Shown here: positions 7,822 to 51,258 of the stretch, piece by piece
How the letters are laid out: each line of letters begins with the position of its first letter
How positions within the stretch are numbered: the first letter of the stretch is position 1
Sequence record: NC_014260.1
DNA from: Escherichia phage IME08
Strand: one strand, 5' to 3'
DNA length: 64,000 nt
The notes under the pieces: model-generated
What the model was told of the DNA's origin: nothing
What the model saw: the letters and a program-made list of their open reading frames with translations, nothing else
Databases searched by the model: none
Translations under genes and position numbers: made by a program

Positions 7822-8496
7822 TTATCGATTTTTTATACTTAATGGGTCAGGATTCTCAGGGACATCTTCCAGGCTCAAGGCGTATCGTTGGGCATATTTA
7901 AGCATCAAGATATCCTTAGCACAGTCATGGATGGAGTCATGAGCAACAAAGCCATTCAATGTTCCGTTAGGCAGAGGACACATGCTCAATCCACGAGTCA
8001 GTGAATAGGCTTCAATGGCCGTACGGATATCGCGTTGGTTCCAGAATTTAACCGGTTCTAATTTACTGGTATCAATTTCATTCTCAGGAACACCTTCAGA
8101 ACGATAAGCATCACGAATTAGGTCGACTAAGATAGGAAAGTCAAAGGACATTCCACGGCACCACATCTGAGATTTCCATTGGTCTACTTCGTTTTTACGG
8201 CAGTATTCCAGGAAATTACCAAGGCCTATAGAAGTGGACACATCAATTTCGGATGGAGCCAGGTTTTTACGTGCTTCAGGCCCTTGCTCTTTCCACCACT
8301 GCAACGTGCTTTTAGAAAACAGTCGTTTATCACGTTGAGAAGCGAGGTCAAATTTAATGCGAAGGCCGCGTTGAGTAAGCTCTTCAAACGTTTCTACAAC
8401 CTCTGGATTAGGGTCGTAAGCAATTACGGCGAGGTCGATAACCGCTGCATTTTGGGTAGTGGCAAAGGTTTCAAAGTCAATAATTATATCTTTCAT
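7822..8496 (-). CDS. dexA: exonuclease A, DnaQ-like 3'-5' exonuclease
   Basis: 224 aa; N-terminal IIIDFETF exonuclease motif; position matches T4 dexA between the motB region and dda. Confidence 0.85.
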   Translation of the reverse strand: MKDIIIDFETFATTQNAAVIDLAVIAYDPNPEVVETFEELTQRGLRIKFDLASQRDKRLFSKSTLQWWKEQGPEARKNLAPSEIDVSTSIGLGNFLEYCRKNEVDQWKSQMWCRGMSFDFPILVDLIRDAYRSEGVPENEIDTSKLEPVKFWNQRDIRTAIEAYSLTRGLSMCPLPNGTLNGFVAHDSIHDCAKDILMLKYAQRYALSLEDVPENPDPLSIKNR

Positions 8497-8732
8497 TTAA
8501 CGTACCTCATAAGGTCGCGGATTTGGCCAACGGTGTAGTCTTCAATATAAACCGAAGAGATATTGTCGTCCATCAGTTTTTGTACAGCAATAAAATCACT
8601 TTCAATCTCTTTAAGAGAATGCAAGACCTTATGAGCCTTGCCACGGATAGTGGTATTGTCTTGGTTGACCTTAATAATATATTCAGTTTCAAATTTCAAC
8701 TTATAAAATTGGTCTTTAGTTACTTTAATCAT
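8493..8732 (-). CDS. hypothetical protein
   Basis: start moved to internal ATG at 8732 with GAGGA SD, just after the dda stop at 8740. Confidence 0.5.
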   Translation of the reverse strand: MIKVTKDQFYKLKFETEYIIKVNQDNTTIRGKAHKVLHSLKEIESDFIAVQKLMDDNISSVYIEDYTVGQIRDLMRYVK

Positions 8733-20984: not shown

Positions 20985-21304
20985 CTCTTAGATTTAATTT
21001 TATCCAGTTCTTCTTGTATTTGCATTGTAACACATTTTTCTACATGAAGCGCTAGCTCTTCTTTTCGGTCTTCGGAAGGTGTTCCGAAATCAACCGACAC
21101 TTTTCCATCTTTCTCAATAACAATATTCATCACATAAACGATGTGAGCAGTGCCATCGGGTAAAGTAAGCATAATTTCCTGCTTAACAGAACCCATTGAC
21201 TTACGGATTATATCTAATGATTTCTCATAATAACGAGGGTCACTAGGACCCTCTTCGGTATCTTTAACAAAATTATCTAAATCAGATAAATCAGTCATGG
21301 TCAC
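20969..21304 (-). CDS. 40: gene 40-like head assembly protein
   Basis: 111 aa between uvsX and 41; positional assignment. Confidence 0.55.
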   Translation of the reverse strand: MTMTDLSDLDNFVKDTEEGPSDPRYYEKSLDIIRKSMGSVKQEIMLTLPDGTAHIVYVMNIVIEKDGKVSVDFGTPSEDRKEELALHVEKCVTMQIQEELDKIKSKRWWKW

Positions 21305-22472
21305 TCACAAAATTCATATTTTCTAAATCGTTTTCGATGTCAGCAGCGCTTTGGGTATTTCCACCTAATTTAACAGCAACGTTCTTAGAGACACGAGAGT
21401 TAATAAGGTCGTTCACTGCATCGTCAACTTCTTTAATAGAATTAATTGCACCGAGCTTATACTTATTCTCGATTGCTTCACGGAACGGGGCATGTTTAAA
21501 CAGCGGTCCCCAGAACTCAACACAATCGGTAGCTTTAGCACGCCATGCTTTTTCTTCTTGAACCATTTCGCCTGTGGTTTCGTCAAGGAATGCACGATTA
21601 TACCAACCAGCTTTAGGTTTCACGACAAAGCCGATATCAGTAGCCATTTCAAGCAATCCACTGAATGGGTCGATACCGCCTTCAAAGTTAACGGTGATAG
21701 GGAACGTTGATTTCTCTTTAACCGTACGAGATTTCTCAGCCTTCAGTGTAAAGTCATAACCTGTGAGCTCGGTACCATCTTTAACCTGACGTTTAGAGAT
21801 AAAGAACACGGTAGAAGCAGAGTACAGAATACCAGTACCACCACCCATAATCTCTTTAGGGTACATTCCACCAATTTCCATAGCCGTGTGGTTAATTGCT
21901 ACACAAGGGATGTCCTTGATGGTCAGATAAGGTGTTACGATACGGAACAGAGATTTCAGTGACTTAGCACGAGTCATATCACCTACAACTTTCTCGTTCA
22001 AAGCATCTTCAGTTTCTTTCTTAGAAGCGGTGTTACCAATGGAGTCGATAAAGATGATAACCTTTTCGCCACGAGTAATTTCTTCTAACTGGTTGGTCAT
22101 ATCAACCTTAAGCTGTTCGACTGATTGGATTGGTGTATGAACCACACGTTCCAGGTCAACACCCATCGAACGGAAATAAGATTCTGAAGCACCAAACTCA
22201 GAGTCATAGAACAAACAAATTGCGTCTGGATATTTCTTCATATATGCCGCAACCATGGTAAGTCCAAACAATGTTTTAAAGTGTTTAGATGGAGCAGCAA
22301 AGATTGTCAAACCTGATTGTAAGCCTGCATTCAACGCACCACCTAATGCAATATTCAACATAGGGATACGAGTAGGAACTTCGTCACGACCATTAAACAA
22401 TTTAGATTTGGTCAGGTCGGCAGTCATTTTAGAAGTAGAAGCTTTAATCAAACGGGATTTTAAATCGGACAT
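21291..22472 (-). CDS. uvsX: UvsX RecA-like recombinase
   Basis: 393 aa; first 15 aa MSDLKSRLIKASTSK identical to recalled T4 UvsX, homology throughout. Confidence 0.95.
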   Translation of the reverse strand: MSDLKSRLIKASTSKMTADLTKSKLFNGRDEVPTRIPMLNIALGGALNAGLQSGLTIFAAPSKHFKTLFGLTMVAAYMKKYPDAICLFYDSEFGASESYFRSMGVDLERVVHTPIQSVEQLKVDMTNQLEEITRGEKVIIFIDSIGNTASKKETEDALNEKVVGDMTRAKSLKSLFRIVTPYLTIKDIPCVAINHTAMEIGGMYPKEIMGGGTGILYSASTVFFISKRQVKDGTELTGYDFTLKAEKSRTVKEKSTFPITVNFEGGIDPFSGLLEMATDIGFVVKPKAGWYNRAFLDETTGEMVQEEKAWRAKATDCVEFWGPLFKHAPFREAIENKYKLGAINSIKEVDDAVNDLINSRVSKNVAVKLGGNTQSAADIENDLENMNFVSDHD

Positions 22473-22549
22473 TATATTTTTCCATAGGCACCATTATATT
22501 TTACTCACGTTTTAAGATAGGGTAATTATATCACTTCACATTTACAGCG

Positions 22550-22681
22550 TTATTTTATTCCTCGGTTGATAGCCTTATCGACTATCTTCCGGACTTCTCG
22601 TTTCTCGAGCCAGCATAATAATAACAAGGCTCCGAAAGAGAATAATAACAAAATTATAAAAAGCAATAAAGGACCTAGCAT
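22550..22681 (-). CDS. small single-pass membrane peptide
   Basis: 43 aa hand-translated (MLGPLLLFIILLLFSFGALLLLCWLEKRE...); GAGGA SD 6 nt upstream; ATG overlaps stop of the 297-aa ORF. Confidence 0.45.
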   Translation of the reverse strand: MLGPLLLFIILLLFSFGALLLLCWLEKREVRKIVDKAINRGIK

Positions 22682-23568
22682 ACTACGTCCTCATAACTTG
22701 GCATTTCGTGCTCAGAATGGATATGGGCACCGAAATAAATGAATTCAGCTAGACCAGGATGGAATACTAAACCAGGATTCTCATGATAAATGATATGAGG
22801 TCTTGATTTCAGAATCTGGTAATATTCAACCTTACTCGGTTTGAATTTAATAATCTCTACATCAGGACGATAGTCTTCGCGCTTAAATGAATCATTCGGG
22901 TCGGTGATATAAAGACGAGCACCTTCAGCTGCAGCTTGGTCTACAACTCTTTCGAATTGATAGCATTTATCTGAGATACGGAACGGATGGAAAATACCAT
23001 CAATTTTAATAGGCGCTAGACCTTCAGAGTAACGCTCAATTACTGCAGGATTAATTACCTTTTGGTCTACAAAAATCTTATCAGAGGATGCACCTCGTGA
23101 CACCAGGACGTCTTTCTGGCATTGATTCAGGACTGTAGTATAAATCGAACGTTCAACTGAAGACACGTCGATATCAATGAACTCATCAATATAATAACGA
23201 GGAACTTCAGGGTCCATTGTAATGTTAAAGTTGAATTGTACAGTCTGAGCACCATCATAACCTGTGATATCGGTTACTAATCCTGAGCAGTCATAGTATT
23301 CGATTAACGAATCAACGACGAACTCATTTTCAGACCAAAAATGTTTACGAGTTTCATAAGCATTTTCTTTATACCAAAGCGGCACAAAATTCAGTTCAGG
23401 AAATAATTCAATGCATTCTTTGATATCGCTCGAATTTCTAGGATAAGCCAGATAATCACCTGGGCGAGCACGGTTTAAATGGAGTTGAAAATTACCGTCC
23501 TTAAGGACGGCATATTCACCTGTTTCGTAACTACGCATACTGAAAATAGGAACGATAAACAGACTCAT
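22675..23568 (-). CDS. unknown protein occupying the beta-glucosyltransferase slot; candidate DNA-modifying transferase
   Basis: 297 aa between uvsX and gene 42 where T4 has beta-gt; no resemblance to recalled T4 beta-gt; function inferred from synteny only. Confidence 0.6.
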   Translation of the reverse strand: MSLFIVPIFSMRSYETGEYAVLKDGNFQLHLNRARPGDYLAYPRNSSDIKECIELFPELNFVPLWYKENAYETRKHFWSENEFVVDSLIEYYDCSGLVTDITGYDGAQTVQFNFNITMDPEVPRYYIDEFIDIDVSSVERSIYTTVLNQCQKDVLVSRGASSDKIFVDQKVINPAVIERYSEGLAPIKIDGIFHPFRISDKCYQFERVVDQAAAEGARLYITDPNDSFKREDYRPDVEIIKFKPSKVEYYQILKSRPHIIYHENPGLVFHPGLAEFIYFGAHIHSEHEMPSYEDVVC

Positions 23569-24263
23569 TTCAGGAATCCTCGAACGTAGTCAAAATCGCG
23601 TTCAAATACGTGTGCACTAACCATAGTATGGGAATATGTACCCAGACCAACACCACACTGTTCGGCAATAAAGGCCATCAGTTTACCTTGCAGATAGAAA
23701 TCCAGCTGCATAACGATAGCACAGTTCTGTGAACGCATATGAGTGTGTGCATACAGACGTCCATCACGAATATAATATGTTACCGAATCGGTGCATGGAT
23801 ATTCTAGGGACTCGTCAGAATCAAGGAGTGCTTGGTCTTGTTCTTGGAGAATTTGGAATACTACACGTCGTGAGTTTTCTTTTTCTTTAAGCTCTTTAAG
23901 TAAAGCTGGAAGTTGTGCGACAATGCGAGGGCCATAAAAGGTATTGAAATTCGCAGGCAATACGTCACTTTTCGGCTTATCAATGAACTTAGCAACATTA
24001 GGGTATTCCTTAAATGCTTCGGCGGCATCAGTACCACCGGAAATCATAAACTTCCAGAAAGATTCGGCATAATCATAGTTGATACGATTAATACGAGGGT
24101 CTGTGAATTTATAGGTGCTTGCATCCAGTACTTCTACCGAAGCAGAACCAATTTCATAACAACGGCCGATACGAGAATCAACTGCAAACTGTGGAGCTTC
24201 CAGGATTTCTTCGTTCATTTGCTTAAACGCGTTTTCAAAACTAACAGCGGTAATGTGTTTCAT
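23565..24263 (-). CDS. 42: dCMP hydroxymethylase-like (thymidylate synthase fold)
   Basis: 232 aa; catalytic-Cys region PCTDSVTYYIRDGRLYAHTHMRSQNCAIVMQLDFY parallels T4 gp42 MCTNTVQYLIRDKK..NMRSNDVVFGF. Confidence 0.75.
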   Translation of the reverse strand: MKHITAVSFENAFKQMNEEILEAPQFAVDSRIGRCYEIGSASVEVLDASTYKFTDPRINRINYDYAESFWKFMISGGTDAAEAFKEYPNVAKFIDKPKSDVLPANFNTFYGPRIVAQLPALLKELKEKENSRRVVFQILQEQDQALLDSDESLEYPCTDSVTYYIRDGRLYAHTHMRSQNCAIVMQLDFYLQGKLMAFIAEQCGVGLGTYSHTMVSAHVFERDFDYVRGFLK

Positions 24264-24796
24264 TTATTCACCTTATTTTCAATATATTCATTCAGACGTT
24301 TTAATTCTACCATATCGACGTTAAGCAAGTTATTATGGCCGTCGTGATTTAAGATTTTAAACACGTTTTCAAAACATGTTTCATATTGCCTGATAGTTAG
24401 GTTGAACTCATCTTTGGTTAATTTAATAAGGTCGTCTTCAAAGTCTTTATCCAGTGGATTACGGGTTAAAATAACCTCAATAATATTGAATTCAGATTTA
24501 AACCCTTTCCAATCTTCCAGTTCTACATAAGGGTCCATTTCACCACGAAGGAATCCAGAGTAAACAATATTACTAGGATATCCACGGTCTAAGATGTAGA
24601 CAAAATTAGGGTCTAAAAACTTATACAACGTCTCGACTAAAGCCTTGTCATTATCGGTCCCTAATGAAATGCATTTGCCATTAATCTTTTTAGGGAAATC
24701 AATAAGACGATATTTCTTATCAGATAAAAGTGATTCAATTAAAGTAGACTTCCCGGAATTATCCGGGCCGTCGATAACAATTATTTTTGGTTTCAC
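24260..24796 (-). CDS. P-loop kinase (dNMP/thymidylate-kinase-like or polynucleotide-kinase-like)
   Basis: 178 aa; Walker A IVIDGPDNSGKST at N-terminus. Confidence 0.7.
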   Translation of the reverse strand: MKPKIIVIDGPDNSGKSTLIESLLSDKKYRLIDFPKKINGKCISLGTDNDKALVETLYKFLDPNFVYILDRGYPSNIVYSGFLRGEMDPYVELEDWKGFKSEFNIIEVILTRNPLDKDFEDDLIKLTKDEFNLTIRQYETCFENVFKILNHDGHNNLLNVDMVELKRLNEYIENKVNK

Positions 24797-25191
24797 GGAT
24801 GATATGCCTTATAGGTTTCAAGAGTTCCTTCACGAACCATTTCTTTAAAGTGGTCAGGACGGATTGCTCGGTCATCGATGATAAAAGTATAACTCGGCTT
24901 ATGTGTAAGCAGATTATGATATTTCAATCCAATCTTTTCAAGGTTCTTAACCAATGCAGGAACTACTTCAACCAAGATTCGACCAGGGCCGCATGAAGTC
25001 ATACCACGAGCAGTGAACAATGTAATCTCGTACCCTTCATCATAAAGCTTATTAATCATAGACACCATTTCGGTGTCCGGTTTAAAGTTTTCGTAATCAC
25101 GGTCATGGTTCCAAATCGTGATTGTGTTATCGATGTCAAAACATAAATGAGGCTTATTTTCTACTCGATGTGACATTAAATTTTCTTCCAT
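24793..25191 (-). CDS. HAD-superfamily phosphatase
   Basis: 132 aa; motif I CFDIDNTIT (DxDxT) near N-terminus. Confidence 0.7.
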   Translation of the reverse strand: MEENLMSHRVENKPHLCFDIDNTITIWNHDRDYENFKPDTEMVSMINKLYDEGYEITLFTARGMTSCGPGRILVEVVPALVKNLEKIGLKYHNLLTHKPSYTFIIDDRAIRPDHFKEMVREGTLETYKAYHP

Positions 25192-26849
25192 TGTTTGTGG
25201 AGTTCAGTAGAACCTGTAGGTTTATATTTTACACCAGTTTCTTGGTCAAGCAAAACCCACTTATCAGGACAACGAGTGATAATTTGAGCCGTGATAGGGT
25301 CGCGAACTTCATCAACGAATTCACCTGTGATAAGCTTACGCTTACGAGGATGCCGCTTCAGCAGCACACTCAGTTGATATAAACCATTGTAATAAGCACC
25401 CAGAGCTTTCAGAGGGTTATTTTTAAAGTAACCTGCCAATGCCATCCAGATAACAGCAATCCAGAGCTTGTGCTTAAATGTACACATTGGAATATCATCT
25501 AATGGCATAACCTTTTCAATATCAACGAATACACGAGTTCCGTTACGAGTTAAGCCACCCCATAGAGGGTCGGAGTTAAATTTGTCATAACCATCGATAG
25601 AATAAAGCACCTTAGCTTCGTCATAAATCGCAGGGCCTTTAGAACTATTACCAAAATAACCACGTGGGTCGATGATTTTAATATCACCTTCGTCCGACAA
25701 CATAATATTACTGTAGTGCGGGTCACCATGAATAAGTTGGTACGGTTCTTTATGTTCAGACAGAATTTCTAAGGCGTGACGAAGAAGTTTTTCTGGGTCA
25801 CCTACCTTAAAGTCATTGACATGGGTAATGCCCTGTGGAGCAAAGCCTTCAATCAATCCAGCAATAGAAGCATTACGAATAAGGACCTTGTCCAATACTT
25901 CTTTCTTAACATCAGAATACCATTGCTCATCAGATGGATTATCGATAGTCCCACCGAATGAACGCAATGCACTAATGACCTTATAAACCATGAGGACTTT
26001 AGTTTCTTTAGACATAAACCGGTAGGCATCTGCCATAGTACGACCAAAGATACGTTCCATTTTAATGAATTCACCTGGAGCAAAGTCTACAATGCTCGGA
26101 ACGAATTCAGAATCAATAGAATTGTACCAATTGATTTCTTTAGATTGGATTTCTTTACCTAATTCGTTGGTAGGTACTTTAATAGCCAGATTCTCAGTGA
26201 ACTCTAATTTATTAAATTCACGGTTAATTTCAGAATCTTCATGAGCCTTAGCCAGTTTCAGTTTGTCACCGACATCAACTACAAAGTCCAGCTTACGTTC
26301 AGTCAAATGGACCATTGAATCCAGATTGTCAGCAAGGTCTTCGCCGTAATTAGAACCGTTAAAACCTGTCCAATTGGCTACTTGATACAAACCAACTACA
26401 CCGCCACCGGTACCAATTTCACGCAGGTACGGTTCTTCAAATGTAAAACGACAGTCGGTCCCATAGGTATAACAGTAGTCGTTATCCCACTCAACTTTAT
26501 GGCCCTCAGGAATGATGTCACACCAGTTAAACAGGACATTGTGCCCGATGATATCTTCAGCAATGCAATCGATAGCATGAGCTGAGCCATTGGCAACATC
26601 TACGTTACGAATAGTGAATTTAGGCTTATCGCTGGTAATCATGTTAATGGATTTAATATAACCCTTAACGAGGTCATTAAATTTGCTATGAATTACCAAA
26701 ATGATTTCATCTGATTGGTTACTATACAAATCATACAAATGTTTTAGTACTGTATGTTGTTTGTAGTTAACCAATACCTTCGGGATTTCGTTAGTAATTG
26801 GATACAACCGTGAGCCAAGACCCGCGCCTAAAATAACAACCTTTTTCAT
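25176..26849 (-). CDS. bifunctional nucleotidyltransferase / APH-choline-kinase-like kinase
   Basis: N-terminal ILGAGLGSRL sugar-phosphate nucleotidyltransferase signature; C-terminal LIHGDPHYSNIM...IIDPRGY kinase motifs; start set at MKKVVILGAG with GAGGAA SD. Confidence 0.8.
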   Translation of the reverse strand: MKKVVILGAGLGSRLYPITNEIPKVLVNYKQHTVLKHLYDLYSNQSDEIILVIHSKFNDLVKGYIKSINMITSDKPKFTIRNVDVANGSAHAIDCIAEDIIGHNVLFNWCDIIPEGHKVEWDNDYCYTYGTDCRFTFEEPYLREIGTGGGVVGLYQVANWTGFNGSNYGEDLADNLDSMVHLTERKLDFVVDVGDKLKLAKAHEDSEINREFNKLEFTENLAIKVPTNELGKEIQSKEINWYNSIDSEFVPSIVDFAPGEFIKMERIFGRTMADAYRFMSKETKVLMVYKVISALRSFGGTIDNPSDEQWYSDVKKEVLDKVLIRNASIAGLIEGFAPQGITHVNDFKVGDPEKLLRHALEILSEHKEPYQLIHGDPHYSNIMLSDEGDIKIIDPRGYFGNSSKGPAIYDEAKVLYSIDGYDKFNSDPLWGGLTRNGTRVFVDIEKVMPLDDIPMCTFKHKLWIAVIWMALAGYFKNNPLKALGAYYNGLYQLSVLLKRHPRKRKLITGEFVDEVRDPITAQIITRCPDKWVLLDQETGVKYKPTGSTELHKQWKKI

Positions 26850-26909
26850 TATCTGTTCCTCAAGTGAATGTAGGTACATTATACACTATTTTTAATAAAT
26901 TGATATTGC

Positions 26910-27410
26910 TTAAATCTTATCTTTACCGATTTCAATGCACTGTTCTATTGCTGCTGGCACTTTGGTCTTGAGCTTATTGATTTGTTTCTTATAATCACGG
27001 GCCTTATCGAAGCTCTCGGTTTCGAGCATTTCGTAATAACGAGCCTCGTGGATGGAAATCTGTAGATTGATATGGTTTACGCACATCGCATACAGTTTCT
27101 GCTTTTTGTACAAATCATCTTGGCGCTTCATTTCTGCCTGGTGTTTGGCTAGTACCGCTTCACGCTTAGACTCTTGTTCACGTTGGAATTCAATTTCTCG
27201 TTGAGCATATTTTGCACAGTTATTACCGCATTGATTATTAGCTCGGGTATACACAAGTCCAGAACCTGCACGGAATTTCATTTCGCCATCGAATTGTTTC
27301 TGTTCAGCTGCGATACGAGCTTTACCGACTTCATCAGCCGAAACTGCATCACCATATTGGACCGCGCAACCTGATAGGAGCATACTCATTGCGATAATTA
27401 ACTTTTTCAT
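26910..27410 (-). CDS. putative lipoprotein
   Basis: 166 aa; signal peptide with lipobox LSGC; coiled-coil-like charged body. Confidence 0.6.
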   Translation of the reverse strand: MKKLIIAMSMLLSGCAVQYGDAVSADEVGKARIAAEQKQFDGEMKFRAGSGLVYTRANNQCGNNCAKYAQREIEFQREQESKREAVLAKHQAEMKRQDDLYKKQKLYAMCVNHINLQISIHEARYYEMLETESFDKARDYKKQINKLKTKVPAAIEQCIEIGKDKI

Positions 27411-27419
27411 TGGATTCCC

Positions 27420-27656
27420 TTACTGTTTAACAATGATGATTTGTGCATTTGATTTACGTTCAGCGACGATAGCCCAGATTAAAGCCACTACCCAACCAAT
27501 CATCGTCCAACCTAACAGGAGATTAAGGAAGAAAATTCCTACATTACTACGAGTGCCTCGCAGAAGAGCCAAAATCCATGGTAAAAAGTAACCGATGAAC
27601 ATAATAGCCAGAGAACCAAATCCTAAAACACCAGCACTAACGATTAAAGCTTCCAT
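27420..27656 (-). CDS. imm: immunity to superinfection membrane protein
   Basis: internal start MEALIVSAGVLGFGSLAIMFIGYFLPWILALLRG matches recalled T4 Imm; two TM segments. Confidence 0.8.
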   Translation of the reverse strand: MEALIVSAGVLGFGSLAIMFIGYFLPWILALLRGTRSNVGIFFLNLLLGWTMIGWVVALIWAIVAERKSNAQIIIVKQ

Positions 27657-27674
27657 TATAATTTCCTCTAAGTA

Positions 27675-27717
27675 GTTGATAGGAAGGATACTACCACGTT
27701 CCATGTGGTATGTAAAC
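27675..27717 (-). promoter_or_regulatory. sigma70-type early promoter (GTTTAC, 18 nt, TAGTAT)
   Basis: gttgatagg...gtaaac between gene 43 stop and imm start. Confidence 0.5.
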
Positions 27718-27719
27718 AC

Positions 27720-30491
27720 TTAAAAGTCGAACATGTCAAATAATGTTGCTTTTTTCTCGTAGTCGATTTTAGCAGACTCGGTAAAACCAGTCAGAGGCTT
27801 GATAAAGGTCTTTTGGAACAGTACGTTGTAGTCCATCCAACGGAGGACTTGGTCACGAATCTGAACCGGAAGTTCAATACCTGACGGCCATGCCATACAG
27901 GCTTCACCAAACGGGTTGCCTTCTTTAAGTGGCAGTACGTATACCTTTTCACCATCAACGATACGAGGCATAGTCAAATCACCAGCAGAAGCACGCATGT
28001 AAGCTAAGCAACCTTTGATGTGGTACGGGCATTTAGAACCAGGGAATCCACCTTCATTATATTTCTCGATGTTGTTAGCACTGGATACTGCTGCAATGCT
28101 TACATAGTCCAGTTCGTTAAATTCCTTATTAAACTGTTTGAAATATTCTTGCAAAGATGCCTCGCCTTCCTGAAGCATACGACGGATACATTCTTTCAGA
28201 GCTTTCTGAACCGCTTTAGGTGTACTTGATTTCTGAGTTTCGAGACCCATGATTTTCAAGTGTGGTTCGGCATAACGAGTACCTTCCATGTCCCAAACGT
28301 TCAGTGCATAACGTTTCTTGCCTGTCCAGAATCCACCAAGACCTTTAGAACCAAGAGGAGGACCTGCGATAGCTTCTCGGTCCATGAACATCAAGTGCTG
28401 TTTGTTGTTCATGTACTCACACATCTCACGGAAGCCTGCATCAATAGCCGGTTCCATACGTTCACGTGCAAATTTATCTAAGAAGTCGACCCAGTGGTTA
28501 GTGTCACGGAATTTATCTTCGCCTACTTTATTGATGATTGCATCTGCCTTAACATAAATGGAGTCAGTATCACCATAGAGCACGAACTTCTGATTTTCAG
28601 TCTTACACACGCTATTCAGATATTCGTTAACCTTACGTTCAATCCATTGGAGGGCCATTTGACCAAACAGTGTGATTGCAGTTGCGTTCCTGAGGTCGTA
28701 GTAACGGAACCATACGTTACCAAGTGCACCATAAAGGGAGTTGATAAGCAACTTACGGTTAATCTGAGCAGTCATACCTGCAACTTCGGTACGTTCAGCT
28801 CTGAACAACATTTCTCTTAAAGAAGGTGCTGACAGTGTTTTAATCTTGGCTTTGATTTCGTCAGAGAAGTCAAAACGATAATCGATATCCAGTGGACTAT
28901 CAACTGACAGATTAGGATTTTCTAATGCTTCTTTAATTAACTCGCCATTACGTTGAGCTGCAAGCATATAACCTTTATGTTCTTTACGCTGTAAGAACAC
29001 CTTCGTGATTTCTGTAGGAATCACACCATCACGGTCTTTATAGTACATCATGCCGTTAGGAGAGCAACTGTAGACGTCGCTAGGACGCGGAGCTGTTCCG
29101 GCAATATATTCATGTATCGGTGCGTTAGCGAATGTGCCTGCGATGGTCTCTGGGCTTATATTCACTTGTCGAATGATACTCGGGTACAGAGATGTAAGGT
29201 CGAAACTCATTACATATTTGTAAGCGTTAGGAATCGGTTCCTTAACGAAAGCACCAGGATAAGGTTGGACCACGTGTGAACGAGCCTGTGGAATGACCCT
29301 GCCTTGTTCTTTAAGGCTATTAAAGATAATAGCATCCCAAGTCTTAATTGGACTGAACACCGACTGAATCTGCATCTTAGCATAATAACCCATGTCCAAA
29401 CTCAGAAGAATGAACTGGCGTTTCATATCAATCTGCACTACACGATATACGTCGATAATGTTATAGGAAATATATCGTTGGTGGTTCGTCTCACGCAACT
29501 TGGAGATTGGGCCATCATATTTCAACTTACCTACTTTCAATTCATATTCAGAAACATAATCCAGAGAATAAGAAGGCTGGTTGGTAAAGCTGAATTTTTT
29601 ATACAGGTCGATATAATCCAGAACAGAGATACCGAACAATGTAATAATTTCACGAGCACCGTACATGTTCTCGATAACTTTAACACGAGTCTTACGATGT
29701 GGGCTTAATCGCTTAGCAGTGTTCTCACCAAACAGATTTTTCAGACGGTTATAAACGTATGGTACGTCAAACGACTCAACGTTCCACCCAGTCAAAATCA
29801 CAGGAGTTTTCTGTTGCCAGAAATTCAAATACTCAAGCATCATTTCTTCTTCGGAATTAAACGGAAGATAAACGATTTTGTCAATGATTTCTTGTGGAAC
29901 TTCGTCACCACCTTCGTCTTGGAGTTTCTCAGCGATTTTAATCGACCACTCTTTGACTCTACCGTAAGGTGAAACTAAAAGGTCGAATACATAGAATTTA
30001 TCGTCAATCGAGTCGTAGTGGGTAATAGCATCGATAGGGTGTTTAGCCTGAGCTGGTTCAGGGAATCCATCAGGAGATGTTACCTCGATGTCGAAGTTAG
30101 CAATACGAATCTTAGAAGAATCATATTTGATTTCTTTACGATAGGTATCGGACAAATAGGCTAATTTGTAGTCGTCCATACCCAGGGCTTCGAGACCCAT
30201 ATCGTCCATACGTTTCATCCATTGGGATGCATCACGCATAGAGTCGAATTCTTTCTTAACACAACCCTTACCATAGATATCAATATATTTTACGGCTTGC
30301 TCTGGATTGGCATGCATAAACATTGTAGGCTTGTAAGGAACTTCACGACTACGTTCTTTACCATTTTTATCGATGTAACGTTCGAGAATATTATCACCGA
30401 TTTGTTCGACTGTCAAATAGAATTCTTGCATTTCATTTCCTTTATAGACGAGTGATTGTCTTTTGTTTGTTGATGAATCATTATACTCCAA
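27720..30491 (-). CDS. 43: DNA polymerase (family B) with 3'-5' exonuclease
   Basis: 923 aa; YGDTDS polymerase motif, FDIE exonuclease motif. Confidence 0.95.
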   Translation of the reverse strand: MEYNDSSTNKRQSLVYKGNEMQEFYLTVEQIGDNILERYIDKNGKERSREVPYKPTMFMHANPEQAVKYIDIYGKGCVKKEFDSMRDASQWMKRMDDMGLEALGMDDYKLAYLSDTYRKEIKYDSSKIRIANFDIEVTSPDGFPEPAQAKHPIDAITHYDSIDDKFYVFDLLVSPYGRVKEWSIKIAEKLQDEGGDEVPQEIIDKIVYLPFNSEEEMMLEYLNFWQQKTPVILTGWNVESFDVPYVYNRLKNLFGENTAKRLSPHRKTRVKVIENMYGAREIITLFGISVLDYIDLYKKFSFTNQPSYSLDYVSEYELKVGKLKYDGPISKLRETNHQRYISYNIIDVYRVVQIDMKRQFILLSLDMGYYAKMQIQSVFSPIKTWDAIIFNSLKEQGRVIPQARSHVVQPYPGAFVKEPIPNAYKYVMSFDLTSLYPSIIRQVNISPETIAGTFANAPIHEYIAGTAPRPSDVYSCSPNGMMYYKDRDGVIPTEITKVFLQRKEHKGYMLAAQRNGELIKEALENPNLSVDSPLDIDYRFDFSDEIKAKIKTLSAPSLREMLFRAERTEVAGMTAQINRKLLINSLYGALGNVWFRYYDLRNATAITLFGQMALQWIERKVNEYLNSVCKTENQKFVLYGDTDSIYVKADAIINKVGEDKFRDTNHWVDFLDKFARERMEPAIDAGFREMCEYMNNKQHLMFMDREAIAGPPLGSKGLGGFWTGKKRYALNVWDMEGTRYAEPHLKIMGLETQKSSTPKAVQKALKECIRRMLQEGEASLQEYFKQFNKEFNELDYVSIAAVSSANNIEKYNEGGFPGSKCPYHIKGCLAYMRASAGDLTMPRIVDGEKVYVLPLKEGNPFGEACMAWPSGIELPVQIRDQVLRWMDYNVLFQKTFIKPLTGFTESAKIDYEKKATLFDMFDF

Positions 30492-49158: not shown

Positions 49159-50139
49159 TTATTTCAGAAGTGTAACTTCAGCGATTTCGTTCCAGTCATT
49201 TTTATCGGTGGCAATGAAGTCCGCCAGATAAAGAGCTGTACGTAATGATACGTTACGAAGACGAGATACATTAGCCTTCATCCATGCTAAAGCTTGATAA
49301 GTCTCAGCATCAGTCAGACCTCGATTTTGCATCATATCAGTAGACAGGATAACGTCTTCAACACGAACCATAATCTCTTCGTTCGAGTGAACTCCGAGGT
49401 CTAAGTAAACTGAACGAGATACTAAAGCCTGGAGGTGCGGAGCAAGTTTAGTTCCACGCTCTAATTCACGGTCAATATCTACGTTGGTGATGAACACGAT
49501 GGTGCCTTCGTATTCGAATTCTTTATCGATGTTTTTATCATCGAGGTAAGAACTTGAAGTGCTCCAGCACACCTTACGTTTTTCACCAGTATCCAATGCT
49601 GCTTTTAACAGGTTCAGGATATCCATATCAGAGAATACATCAACATCATCGATAAGAAGAACACTATTAGGGCCGCGGTTATTCCAAAGCTGCTCGTAAA
49701 GACCGATTCCACTAATCTTTCCGTTGATTGATTTATATTCGATAGTTTCATTTTCGTGGGCATTTTGTAATGCTTTATCCAAAGAATACGTTTTACCAAT
49801 ACCTGCGGCACCAGAGATGATAAGGGAACGAATTTTACCATCGATGATTCCGTTGGTCATCATGTTCATTACTTTAAAACGTTTGTTGATGCGATGTTTC
49901 ATTTCTTCGGCGGATTCAGTAACCATTGCAGGAGCTTCAGCACCTTCCATTTCAACGTCACATTTGAACACCCATACACCACGTTCAACACCATCAATCT
50001 GTACGAATACCTTACCATCACCGAGATGAGCTTCGGATTCATGAATTTTATTAGGGAACCAGGTTTTACCTGAACTCATGAACGTACCAGAGATTTCATT
50101 ACCGCGATAGATACCTTTGTTGATTTTGATAGTTAACAT
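49159..50139 (-). CDS. P-loop NTPase (AAA-like)
   Basis: Walker A GAAGIGKT, Walker B LLIDDVD; start moved to ATG 50139 (GGAGA SD) because the track start lies above the promoter. Confidence 0.65.
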   Translation of the reverse strand: MLTIKINKGIYRGNEISGTFMSSGKTWFPNKIHESEAHLGDGKVFVQIDGVERGVWVFKCDVEMEGAEAPAMVTESAEEMKHRINKRFKVMNMMTNGIIDGKIRSLIISGAAGIGKTYSLDKALQNAHENETIEYKSINGKISGIGLYEQLWNNRGPNSVLLIDDVDVFSDMDILNLLKAALDTGEKRKVCWSTSSSYLDDKNIDKEFEYEGTIVFITNVDIDRELERGTKLAPHLQALVSRSVYLDLGVHSNEEIMVRVEDVILSTDMMQNRGLTDAETYQALAWMKANVSRLRNVSLRTALYLADFIATDKNDWNEIAEVTLLK

Positions 50140-50166
50140 TATATTCTCCGTTTCACTCAGTAGATT

Positions 50167-50205
50167 TGATAGGTCCATAATAACATGCTCTACGAGGGTG
50201 TAAAC
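50167..50205 (-). promoter_or_regulatory. sigma70-type early promoter (GTTTAC, 17 nt, TATTAT)
   Basis: tttgataggtccataata...gtaaac. Confidence 0.6.
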
Positions 50206-50221
50206 TCTTTTTTGCACTAAA

Positions 50222-50246
50222 CCCAAAAAAGGCCCGAAGGCCTTTT
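50222..50246 (-). terminator. GGCC-UUCG-GGCC tetraloop hairpin + U6
   Basis: minus strand GGCCttcgGGCCttttttgggttt after stop of ORF 50248..51258. Confidence 0.6.
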
Positions 50247-50247
50247 A

Positions 50248-51258
50248 TCATTTATAATACGAGTTATGGTTTTCTAGGTAAACCTCTTCAACGAACTTGT
50301 CCCAGAACTTCATGTCTACCTTCTCAGGCATACCATTCTTAGCGGCCCAGATAGCATTAGTTTCGACTTCATCAACGATGGCTTCAAGTTCAGCCTGTAC
50401 ATCTTTAAAAGCATGAAGCCCTTGTTTGATTTCAAGGATAAACGGTGCTGTACGTAAAGGATATTGGAGGTCGCCTGTTTGATAGATTTCCTTCAACTGA
50501 TATCCAGCACGATAAGCATGGCTCAGAGCTTTCCAGTCAATACCTTCGTTAGCTTCAGCTTTACGAGCACGTTCGCCATATTCCGAATCGAGCTTATTCA
50601 GAGATTGCTTGAGCTCGATTAATGACAGAGTGGTTTGGTATTTACGTCCGAGAACAGTATAGAACGTTTGAGGACCTGTTTTCTCATGGTTGTAGAATAC
50701 CCATTCACAGAACTCGTTTTCAGGGAGTCGATGTTTGATATCTTCTACCTTAGTGCGACGTTGCTTAGTAGAACCATCTTCTTGATAATCGACCCACTGT
50801 TCGGGAATCTGGTTAACAATAGCCAGTACACCACGCAGAGCAGCCAGTCGAGAACCTTTAACGCCATATTTAGAAGCTTGCTTACGGACATACCCTAAAT
50901 AGGCTTTCATGTTGGTTGTATAGAACCGTGAACGATTATCTTGGATAAATTTCCATACATCAGGTAAATCAGATTTAACCACCAGTTCAGCTGGAGTGTG
51001 GAGCATATCCAGAGCAACGGTTTCGCCATCAGCCGCTAGTTTAAAGAAATATTTCAGGCTGTAAAGCTCATGGTCAACATCATCTTTAGTGTTTTTGGAA
51101 GCAGTGTTATTCGTGTTCAGGTTGGTATGGTTCATAGCCGTACCTAACAGAATATCACGCGGATGTGGAACAAAGATTTCTTTAAAATCGACATCAGATT
51201 CCGGAGTACTTGTTCCATAAAGGTGGCTACCGAAGTAGCCTTTCATAACTGTTCTCAT
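50248..51258 (-). CDS. putative nucleotidyltransferase-fold protein
   Basis: 336 aa; N-terminal GSHLYGTSTPESDVD resembles the pol-beta-superfamily G[GS]x(9-13)DxD motif. Confidence 0.5.
   Translation of the reverse strand: MRTVMKGYFGSHLYGTSTPESDVDFKEIFVPHPRDILLGTAMNHTNLNTNNTASKNTKDDVDHELYSLKYFFKLAADGETVALDMLHTPAELVVKSDLPDVWKFIQDNRSRFYTTNMKAYLGYVRKQASKYGVKGSRLAALRGVLAIVNQIPEQWVDYQEDGSTKQRRTKVEDIKHRLPENEFCEWVFYNHEKTGPQTFYTVLGRKYQTTLSLIELKQSLNKLDSEYGERARKAEANEGIDWKALSHAYRAGYQLKEIYQTGDLQYPLRTAPFILEIKQGLHAFKDVQAELEAIVDEVETNAIWAAKNGMPEKVDMKFWDKFVEEVYLENHNSYYK

Follow-up and report, generated by a model that had tools for sequence, protein, structure and literature searches.

Adjacent phosphatase and kinase genes of Escherichia phage IME08 probably serve an arabinosyl-5-hydroxycytosine pathway

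Introduction

A HAD phosphatase gene and a P-loop kinase gene lie side by side in a 64,000-nucleotide stretch of the Escherichia phage IME08 genome (NC_014260.1), hereafter the window. T4 polynucleotide kinase/phosphatase (Pnk) is built from the same two superfamilies, and an earlier note on this DNA had proposed that the pair might either heal nucleic-acid ends in the manner of Pnkp or supply a neighbouring pathway as nucleotide or sugar-phosphate enzymes. Which of these roles do the two genes play? The second proposal held up, as the phosphatase is matched to the AfhF family and the kinase to RB69 gp45, both within a 5-hydroxycytosine cluster. We consider it probable that the pair represents the second and third cistrons of an early operon through which arabinosylated 5-hydroxycytosine would take the place of cytosine. 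Within this single DNA-hypermodification pathway, each enzyme has a branch of its own, the sugar donor for the phosphatase and the modified nucleotide for the kinase.

As reported by Lee et al. (NAR 2026, PMC13326640), cytosine gives way to 5-hydroxycytosine with one to three arabinoses in RB69 and in DLP3, an Acinetobacter phage, and the pathway is located in the RB69 gp45-gp55 region. The authors listed Dhakaviruses among the lineages with a syntenic cluster. 5-Hydroxy-dCMP (5hodCMP) is made by a homolog of thymidylate synthase (TS), with activity in RB69 and DLP3, and the gp1-type deoxynucleoside monophosphate (dNMP) kinase of RB69 converts 5hodCMP to 5hodCDP (PMC13326640). According to He et al. 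(2026, as cited in PMC13326640), AfhF of phage HY126 is a Mg-dependent HAD phosphatase that converts arabinofuranose-1,5-bisphosphate (Araf1,5P) to arabinofuranose-1-phosphate (Araf1P), which goes into UDP-arabinofuranose. RB69 gp52:53 and gp51 were described as analogs of HY126 AfhE and AfhF, and the gp45-type protein was listed just as a "nucleotide kinase", from structure matches (PMC13326640). Since the cluster and its presence in Dhakaviruses are published, the gene pair itself is already known. Thomas et al. 2018 and a transposon-mutagenesis preprint contained nothing on the HAD or the kinase gene.

Results and discussion

The gene pair and its operon

The region is 93-97% identical in nucleotide sequence to Dhakavirus genomes (JS10, Bp7, AnYang and others), which identifies the source as a Dhakavirus-like T-even phage. 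The HAD phosphatase gene occupies positions 24793-25191 on the minus strand and encodes 132 residues; its motif I (DxDxT) is LCFDIDNTIT. The kinase gene follows on the same strand (24260-24796, minus), has a GTG start and encodes 178 residues, MKPKIIVIDGPDNSGKST among them; its Walker A motif reads GPDNSGKST (IVIDGPDNSGKST). As the earlier note had described, the two reading frames are adjacent and overlap by four nucleotides, GTGA, in which the TGA stop of the HAD gene is shared with the GTG start of the kinase gene. We also confirmed that the genes are separate and run phosphatase first, kinase second, the reverse of T4 Pnk, and that they lie in the replication/modification region, between the gp43 polymerase gene and uvsX.

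Both are real genes under strong purifying selection, with pN/pS values of 0.052 (kinase) and 0.027 (HAD) in comparison with JS10. Homologs were detected by tblastn in 342 phage records for the kinase and 377 for the HAD. The catalytic HAD residues of motifs I-IV (D19-x-D21-x-T23, T60, K98 and D106-D107) are intact and conserved in six genera, and the P-loop of the kinase, G10-P11-D12-x-x-G15-K16, was invariant among the 11 orthologs compared.

Judging by the N-termini of the orthologs, Met6 is the probable start of the HAD, its ATG at 25176 overlapping the preceding stop codon as TAATG, and Met11 (position 26849) that of the 567-residue reading frame upstream. JS10 carries this upstream bifunctional gene in a 557-residue form. 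The five-residue N-terminal extension that sets the annotated HAD reading frame apart from the AfhF group is, accordingly, probably untranslated.

The pair belongs to a series of five co-directional genes in the order bifunctional gene, HAD, kinase, TS homolog and glycosyltransferase (GT), joined by the start/stop overlaps TAATG, GTGA, ATGA and ATGA. As read from these junctions, the five genes form a translationally coupled operon. Orthologs of all five exist in RB69, and likewise in HY126. A scan of positions 22300-27800 for promoters and terminators returned signal no better than that of shuffled sequence.

The phosphatase

The HAD matched Protein Data Bank (PDB) entry 9iqw with E 5.4e-55, 1xpj with E 3.5e-12, and mammalian PNKP with E 0.6-0.7. 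Over the aligned part, 9iqw has the same sequence as the HY126 HAD XAN60478.1 (AfhF), and 9iqu likewise has that of the HY126 TS homolog; because of this identity, we infer that both entries are the structures of He et al. The IME08 protein shares 64% identity with XAN60478.1 (E 2.7e-64) and 63% with RB69 gp51. In family searches, it matched phrog_1238 (3.5e-42) and TIGR01689 (1.1e-14), and its nearest NCBIfam family was the EcbF/BcbF capsule-biosynthesis phosphatase subfamily, with a score under the cutoff. A Pfam search with the HAD gave no match.

The HAD gene directly follows an AfhE-like gene here and in JS10, RB69, HY126, CBH8, Pm5461, Kimel and Thanatos-2, and tblastn positions fitted this order in all 27 full-cluster IMG/VR loci. 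Moreover, distant HAD homologs in cyanophages adjoin a carbohydrate kinase and a nucleotidyltransferase. On the basis of the 9iqw match, the place after the AfhE-like gene and the cyanophage neighbours, we assign the HAD as an ortholog of HY126 AfhF, RB69 gp51 and DLP3 gp81, and predict it to be a D-arabinofuranose-1,5-bisphosphate 5-phosphatase. The likeness to these three proteins comprises 63-64% identity over ~125 residues, all four HAD motifs, a size of ~128 residues, the absence of a cap domain and the gene position. A difference lies in motif I, which is DxDxT in IME08 but DxDxC in RB69 and HY126.

The ADP-heptose pathway offers a parallel, with HldE as kinase/adenylyltransferase and GmhB as a HAD 1,7-bisphosphate 7-phosphatase. 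The logic is alike in that C1 is phosphorylated, the distal phosphate is removed by a HAD enzyme, and the NDP-sugar is formed by a nucleotidyltransferase that shares a polypeptide with the kinase. In the phage pathway, however, the sugar is arabinofuranose, the kinase domain belongs to the APH and not to the ribokinase type, and the product decorates DNA rather than lipopolysaccharide. Foldseek matches of the phage HADs to GmhB were reported by Lee et al. (PMC13326640).

Fold and motifs of the kinase

The kinase shares 37% identity with RB69 gp45 (E 5e-30) and 36% with the HY126 homolog, and by its sequence is an ortholog of RB69 gp45 and of the DLP3 gp78 "nucleotide kinase". With RB69 gp45, DLP3 gp78 and Thanatos TH2_067, it has in common 37-43% identity, the same invariant motifs and a constantly co-directional place in the cluster. 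It matched phrog_761, "thymidylate kinase", at 2.4e-39. The family profile found Bacillus subtilis YorR (5.8e-7), Staphylococcus aureus thymidylate kinase (Tmk; 8.8e-6) and vaccinia Tmk (6.9e-5) in the PDB, and the P-loop matches in Pfam were all sub-threshold. A word-indexed protein search returned nine kinase clusters, too shallow a set for assigning function. Taken together, the sequence searches place the kinase, weakly but consistently, in the thymidylate-kinase/dNK clade.

The invariant residues of the family line up with elements of the Tmk nucleoside monophosphate (NMP) site, in a comparison that included vaccinia Tmk. The P-loop GPD12xxGK[ST]T includes an acidic residue, as in Tmk. 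F34-P35-K36 is the counterpart of FP(E/Q)R in type I Tmk, D70-R71 that of DRY, with Gly or Cys at the third position, and S75...Y79 that of S..AY. The Gln of the Tmk AYQ motif, which contacts the base, is replaced by S80, a position that varies across the family. Because this base-contacting residue is not conserved, the substrate is likely a pyrimidine other than that of Tmk. In comparison with type I thymidylate kinases (vaccinia A48R, human, yeast), the protein is ~30 residues shorter, and in its family SN is invariant and a TRN...F.DDLI block is present, neither of which is seen in Tmk. The job of T4 gp1, a dNMP kinase, is probably alike, namely to phosphorylate the modified dCMP delivered by the TS homolog.

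The kinase family is small, with 45 clusters at E<=1e-10 in a library of 1.84 billion proteins. We also observed about eight 50%-identity clusters in which a distant Tmk-like kinase shares its polypeptide with a HhH-GPD glycosylase domain of MBD4-like type (profile match to MBD4 4ew4, E 7.6e-19). Among further distant relatives, one is fused to a TS homolog and another to a UDG-like domain. Enzymes of this kind may have modified pyrimidines as substrates, possibly those in DNA. When IMG/VR was searched with the kinase-glycosylase and kinase-TS fusions, it yielded no loci.

Genomic association of the kinase

The kinase and the HAD occur in equal numbers of phage records for each host genus, i.e. 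Escherichia 175, Acinetobacter 57, Klebsiella 25, Shigella 15, Serratia 9, Enterobacter 9, Proteus 7 and Yersinia 6, in a comparison covering the genera listed for both. All five genes were co-directional in 27 of the 29 IMG/VR loci that had a kinase homolog and full flanks. The place of the kinase gene varies. It follows the HAD gene in this phage, in Klebsiella-type phages and in Proteus phage Pm5461, and the first GT gene in RB69, HY126, Serratia CBH8, Acinetobacter Kimel, Shewanella Thanatos-2 and Rhizobium RL38J1.

RL38J1, a member of a different family, the Pootjesviridae, decorates 5-hydroxycytosine with galactose and glucose (PMC13326640). Its kinase is remotely homologous to that of IME08 (hhalign probability 80%, E 1.4e-5), and the order TS homolog, GT, kinase recurs there. 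Moreover, the sugar branch, as far as it is outlined in PMC13326640, is complete without a further kinase. The co-occurrence with the cluster, the RL38J1 gene order, the TS fusion and a sugar branch that needs no kinase led us to place the kinase in the nucleotide branch, where its most likely reaction, as judged from these relationships, is 5hodCMP to the diphosphate.

Proposed pathway and the minimal Dhakavirus cluster

In the proposed sugar branch, D-arabinose-5-phosphate would probably come from host KdsD/GutQ, since this lineage is without a phage isomerase. The C-terminal kinase domain of the 557-residue protein would phosphorylate it at C1, the 132-residue HAD would take off the 5-phosphate to leave Araf1P, and the N-terminal nucleotidyltransferase domain of the 557-residue protein would then form UDP-arabinofuranose. 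In the nucleotide branch, the TS homolog would hydroxylate dCMP to 5hodCMP, and the 178-residue Tmk-like kinase, alone or with the gp1 dNMP kinase, would phosphorylate 5hodCMP towards the triphosphate. After incorporation of the triphosphate by gp43, the 297-residue GT would move arabinose onto 5-hydroxycytosine. The basis for this scheme is orthology, motifs, fold, synteny and co-occurrence, with the AfhE/AfhF and 5hodCMP synthase activities taken from the literature. The kinase substrate, the host origin of arabinose-5-phosphate and a single arabinose per base are our suggestions.

The complete genome of the related phage LQ5, 93.7% identical to the window over 59.6 kb, contains the five genes and gp1. 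Neither the window nor LQ5 contains an arabinose-5-phosphate isomerase, a U32-like gp50 or a gp3-type second arabinosyltransferase, and the LQ5 genome has neither gp49 nor the extra Acinetobacter-type transferases. The isomerase, the U32-peptidase-like gp50 and a second arabinosyltransferase are carried by Mosigvirus, Winklervirus and/or Acinetobacter phages. Klebsiella-type phages and Pm5461 have no isomerase either. Given that the isomerase, gp50, gp49 and extra transferases are absent, the Dhakavirus cluster is a minimal five-gene version, the smallest among the clusters compared. It points to the indispensable genes, and the kinase is among those retained.

Alternative roles of the two enzymes

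We give almost no credence to a split Pnkp-type pair, in which the kinase would act on the 5'-OH and the HAD on the 3'-phosphate of broken nucleic acids. The likeness to T4 Pnkp consists of the two superfamilies, P-loop kinase and DxDxT HAD phosphatase, a weak HAD match to phrog_415 "polynucleotide kinase" (3.1e-6) and the use of "polynucleotide kinase" as a HAD label in some GenBank records. However, the IME08 proteins are separate polypeptides in the opposite order, within a base-modification operon. The kinase belongs to the Tmk clade and bears no resemblance to the adenylate-kinase-like 5'-OH polynucleotide kinases of the Pnk type. The HAD falls in a sugar-phosphatase subfamily and resembles the Pnk/PNKP phosphatases at superfamily level only, as its E values for PNKP and AfhF (0.6-0.7 vs 5e-55) illustrate. 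Nor are the two coupled, either by fusion or as conserved neighbours; they adjoin only in the Dhakavirus, Klebsiella-type and Proteus lineages and are two to five genes apart in RB69, HY126, CBH8, Kimel and Thanatos-2. The wrong kinase clade, the wrong HAD subfamily and the non-conserved adjacency led us to reject the end-healing role put forward earlier. The accompanying suggestion, to distinguish a dNMP kinase from a Pnk-type kinase by homology, was borne out in part, in that the kinase looks Tmk-like and not Pnk-like, but it did not reach the canonical Tmk cutoffs and showed no homology to T4 gp1 (1dek).

Several points weigh against the proposed scheme. We found no DNA-composition data for any Dhakavirus in the literature, and no biochemical test of a gp45-type kinase is reported in the accessible literature. 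The kinase scored under the curated Tmk cutoffs (Pfam, 15.1 vs 27 bits; TIGR00041, 19 vs 83.25 bits), and its structure, predicted from a nine-row alignment, gave marginal Foldseek matches (E ~1e-4 to 1e-3) to a mix of PPK2, YorR, dCK and Tmk. Dhakaviruses keep gp1, and a second 5hodCMP kinase looks redundant because the gp1-type kinase of RB69 already performs this conversion. Furthermore, Morganella phage MP1 (NC_031020) has the kinase between polymerase and uvsX (positions 8004-8534 of the MP1 stretch), and within 10 kb of it we found no TS homolog, GT, HAD or AfhE-like gene. MP1 thus keeps the kinase alone, so the kinase could function without the modification; the MP1 gene is either left over from a cluster since lost or points to a modification-independent function.

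MP1, together with the Tmk-like fold and motifs and the ability of RB69 gp1 to handle 5hodCMP, would fit a general pyrimidine dNMP kinase, acting on dTMP or dCMP in precursor supply and only loosely tied to the modification. We regard this as unlikely. Outside MP1, the kinase is found almost only inside 5-hydroxycytosine clusters; it adjoins a TS homolog and a GT in an unrelated phage family, and it is kept in the minimal Dhakavirus cluster, from which the isomerase and the U32-like gene were lost. The non-conserved AYQ Gln argues in the same direction. More doubtful still is a scheme with the first sugar added before replication. The co-inherited first GT would then act on 5hodCMP, the kinase would phosphorylate arabinosyl-5-hydroxy-dCMP, a bulky substrate beyond gp1, and the polymerase would incorporate a glycosylated dCTP analogue. 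Such a scheme would account for the second kinase beside gp1 and would fit the inheritance of TS homolog, first GT and kinase as a triad in Straboviridae and Pootjesviridae, whatever the sugar. Lee et al. found single GTs inactive on 5-hydroxycytosine DNA, and their experiments did not distinguish between mononucleotide and post-replicative levels for the first arabinosylation (PMC13326640). Nevertheless, the later arabinoses are added on DNA (PMC13326640), and the T-even precedent is post-replicative glycosylation.

It also seems very improbable that the kinase works in the sugar branch, on a sugar or sugar phosphate, or on DNA, as the 5-hydroxymethyluracil DNA kinases do. Its adjacency to the HAD in this phage would suit the former, and the MBD4-like or UDG-like fusions of distant relatives hint at the latter. 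These fusions also suggest a weaker variant of the pre-replication scheme, in which the family diversified into kinases of modified bases at the DNA level. But the sugar pathway, in its published outline, needs no such enzyme, and RL38J1, which relies on host UDP-hexose and a mutase, still carries the kinase. The protein has no DNA-binding or glycosylase-like domain, and its P-loop Asp, FP-basic, DR and S..Y motifs match the NMP-binding Tmk.

Annotation of the pair

In GenBank/RefSeq, the HAD is labelled "phosphoheptose isomerase", "capsule biosynthesis protein" or "polynucleotide kinase", and the kinase "thymidylate kinase" or "AAA domain-containing protein". The public annotation of the two genes is inconsistent and misleading. 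Correctly annotated, they point to a phage with predicted 5-hydroxycytosine, arabinosylated at the 5-hydroxyl, in place of cytosine. Sensitivity to restriction, CRISPR and type IV systems is governed by such a modification, which is also relevant to the choice of Dhakavirus-type phages for therapy. Of wider interest is the second, Tmk-like kinase that these phages keep beside gp1.

Other genes of the operon and its surroundings

The first cistron (25176-26879, minus strand, or to 26849 from Met11) encodes a predicted AfhE-like fusion of an N-terminal sugar-1-phosphate nucleotidyltransferase and a C-terminal APH-type sugar kinase, orthologous to RB69 gp52:53. Pfam recognised NTP_transferase (3e-8, residues 13-110) and APH (1.3e-5, residues 356-427), and phrog_4098 matched at 3.9e-269. 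The protein is 41-45% identical to RB69 gp52 and gp53 and 43% to the HY126 homolog.

The fourth cistron (23565-24263, minus strand) encodes the TS homolog, a predicted 5-hydroxy-dCMP synthase orthologous to RB69 gp48 (78% identity) and to the HY126 TS homolog (79%), with E 2e-124 to PDB 9iqu/9iqc. In its sequence, HMRSQNCAIVMQLD, Asn stands at the ThyA D169 position (RSQN) and Asp at the N177 position. D169N is the published diagnostic signature (PMC13326640).

The last cistron (22675-23568, minus strand) encodes 297 residues and is the putative first DNA arabinosyltransferase, an ortholog of RB69 gp46:47 with 65-69% identity to gp46 and gp47 and 67% to the HY126 homolog. It matched phrog_3891 at 1.3e-158 and gp215 of Rhizobium phage RL38J1 with 25% identity (E 2e-10); Pfam and PDB sequence searches with this GT gave no match.

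The operon is flanked by uvsX (21291-22472) and the gp43 DNA polymerase gene (27720-30491); at the same position, T4 has gene 42 and beta-gt. Just upstream of uvsX, a strongly hydrophobic 43-residue reading frame (MLGPLLLFIILLLFSFGALLLLCW...; 22550-22681, minus strand) starts 7 nucleotides before the GT stop. It carries no annotation in JS10 and could be a small membrane protein or spurious. On the polymerase side, the interval contains a 166-residue protein with a lipoprotein-type signal, MKKLIIAMSMLLSGC, which belongs to phrog_1754 of unknown function (26910-27410, minus strand), and a 99-residue membrane protein (27420-27719, minus strand), at whose position JS10 has the label "immunity to superinfection". 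Elsewhere in the window, a gene for an AAA-type ATPase (sub-threshold in Pfam; 49159-50226) adjoins one for an RlaP-like nucleotidyltransferase of the RNA-repair-pathway pol-beta family (50248-51258), both on the minus strand, a possible RNA-repair or counter-defence pair.

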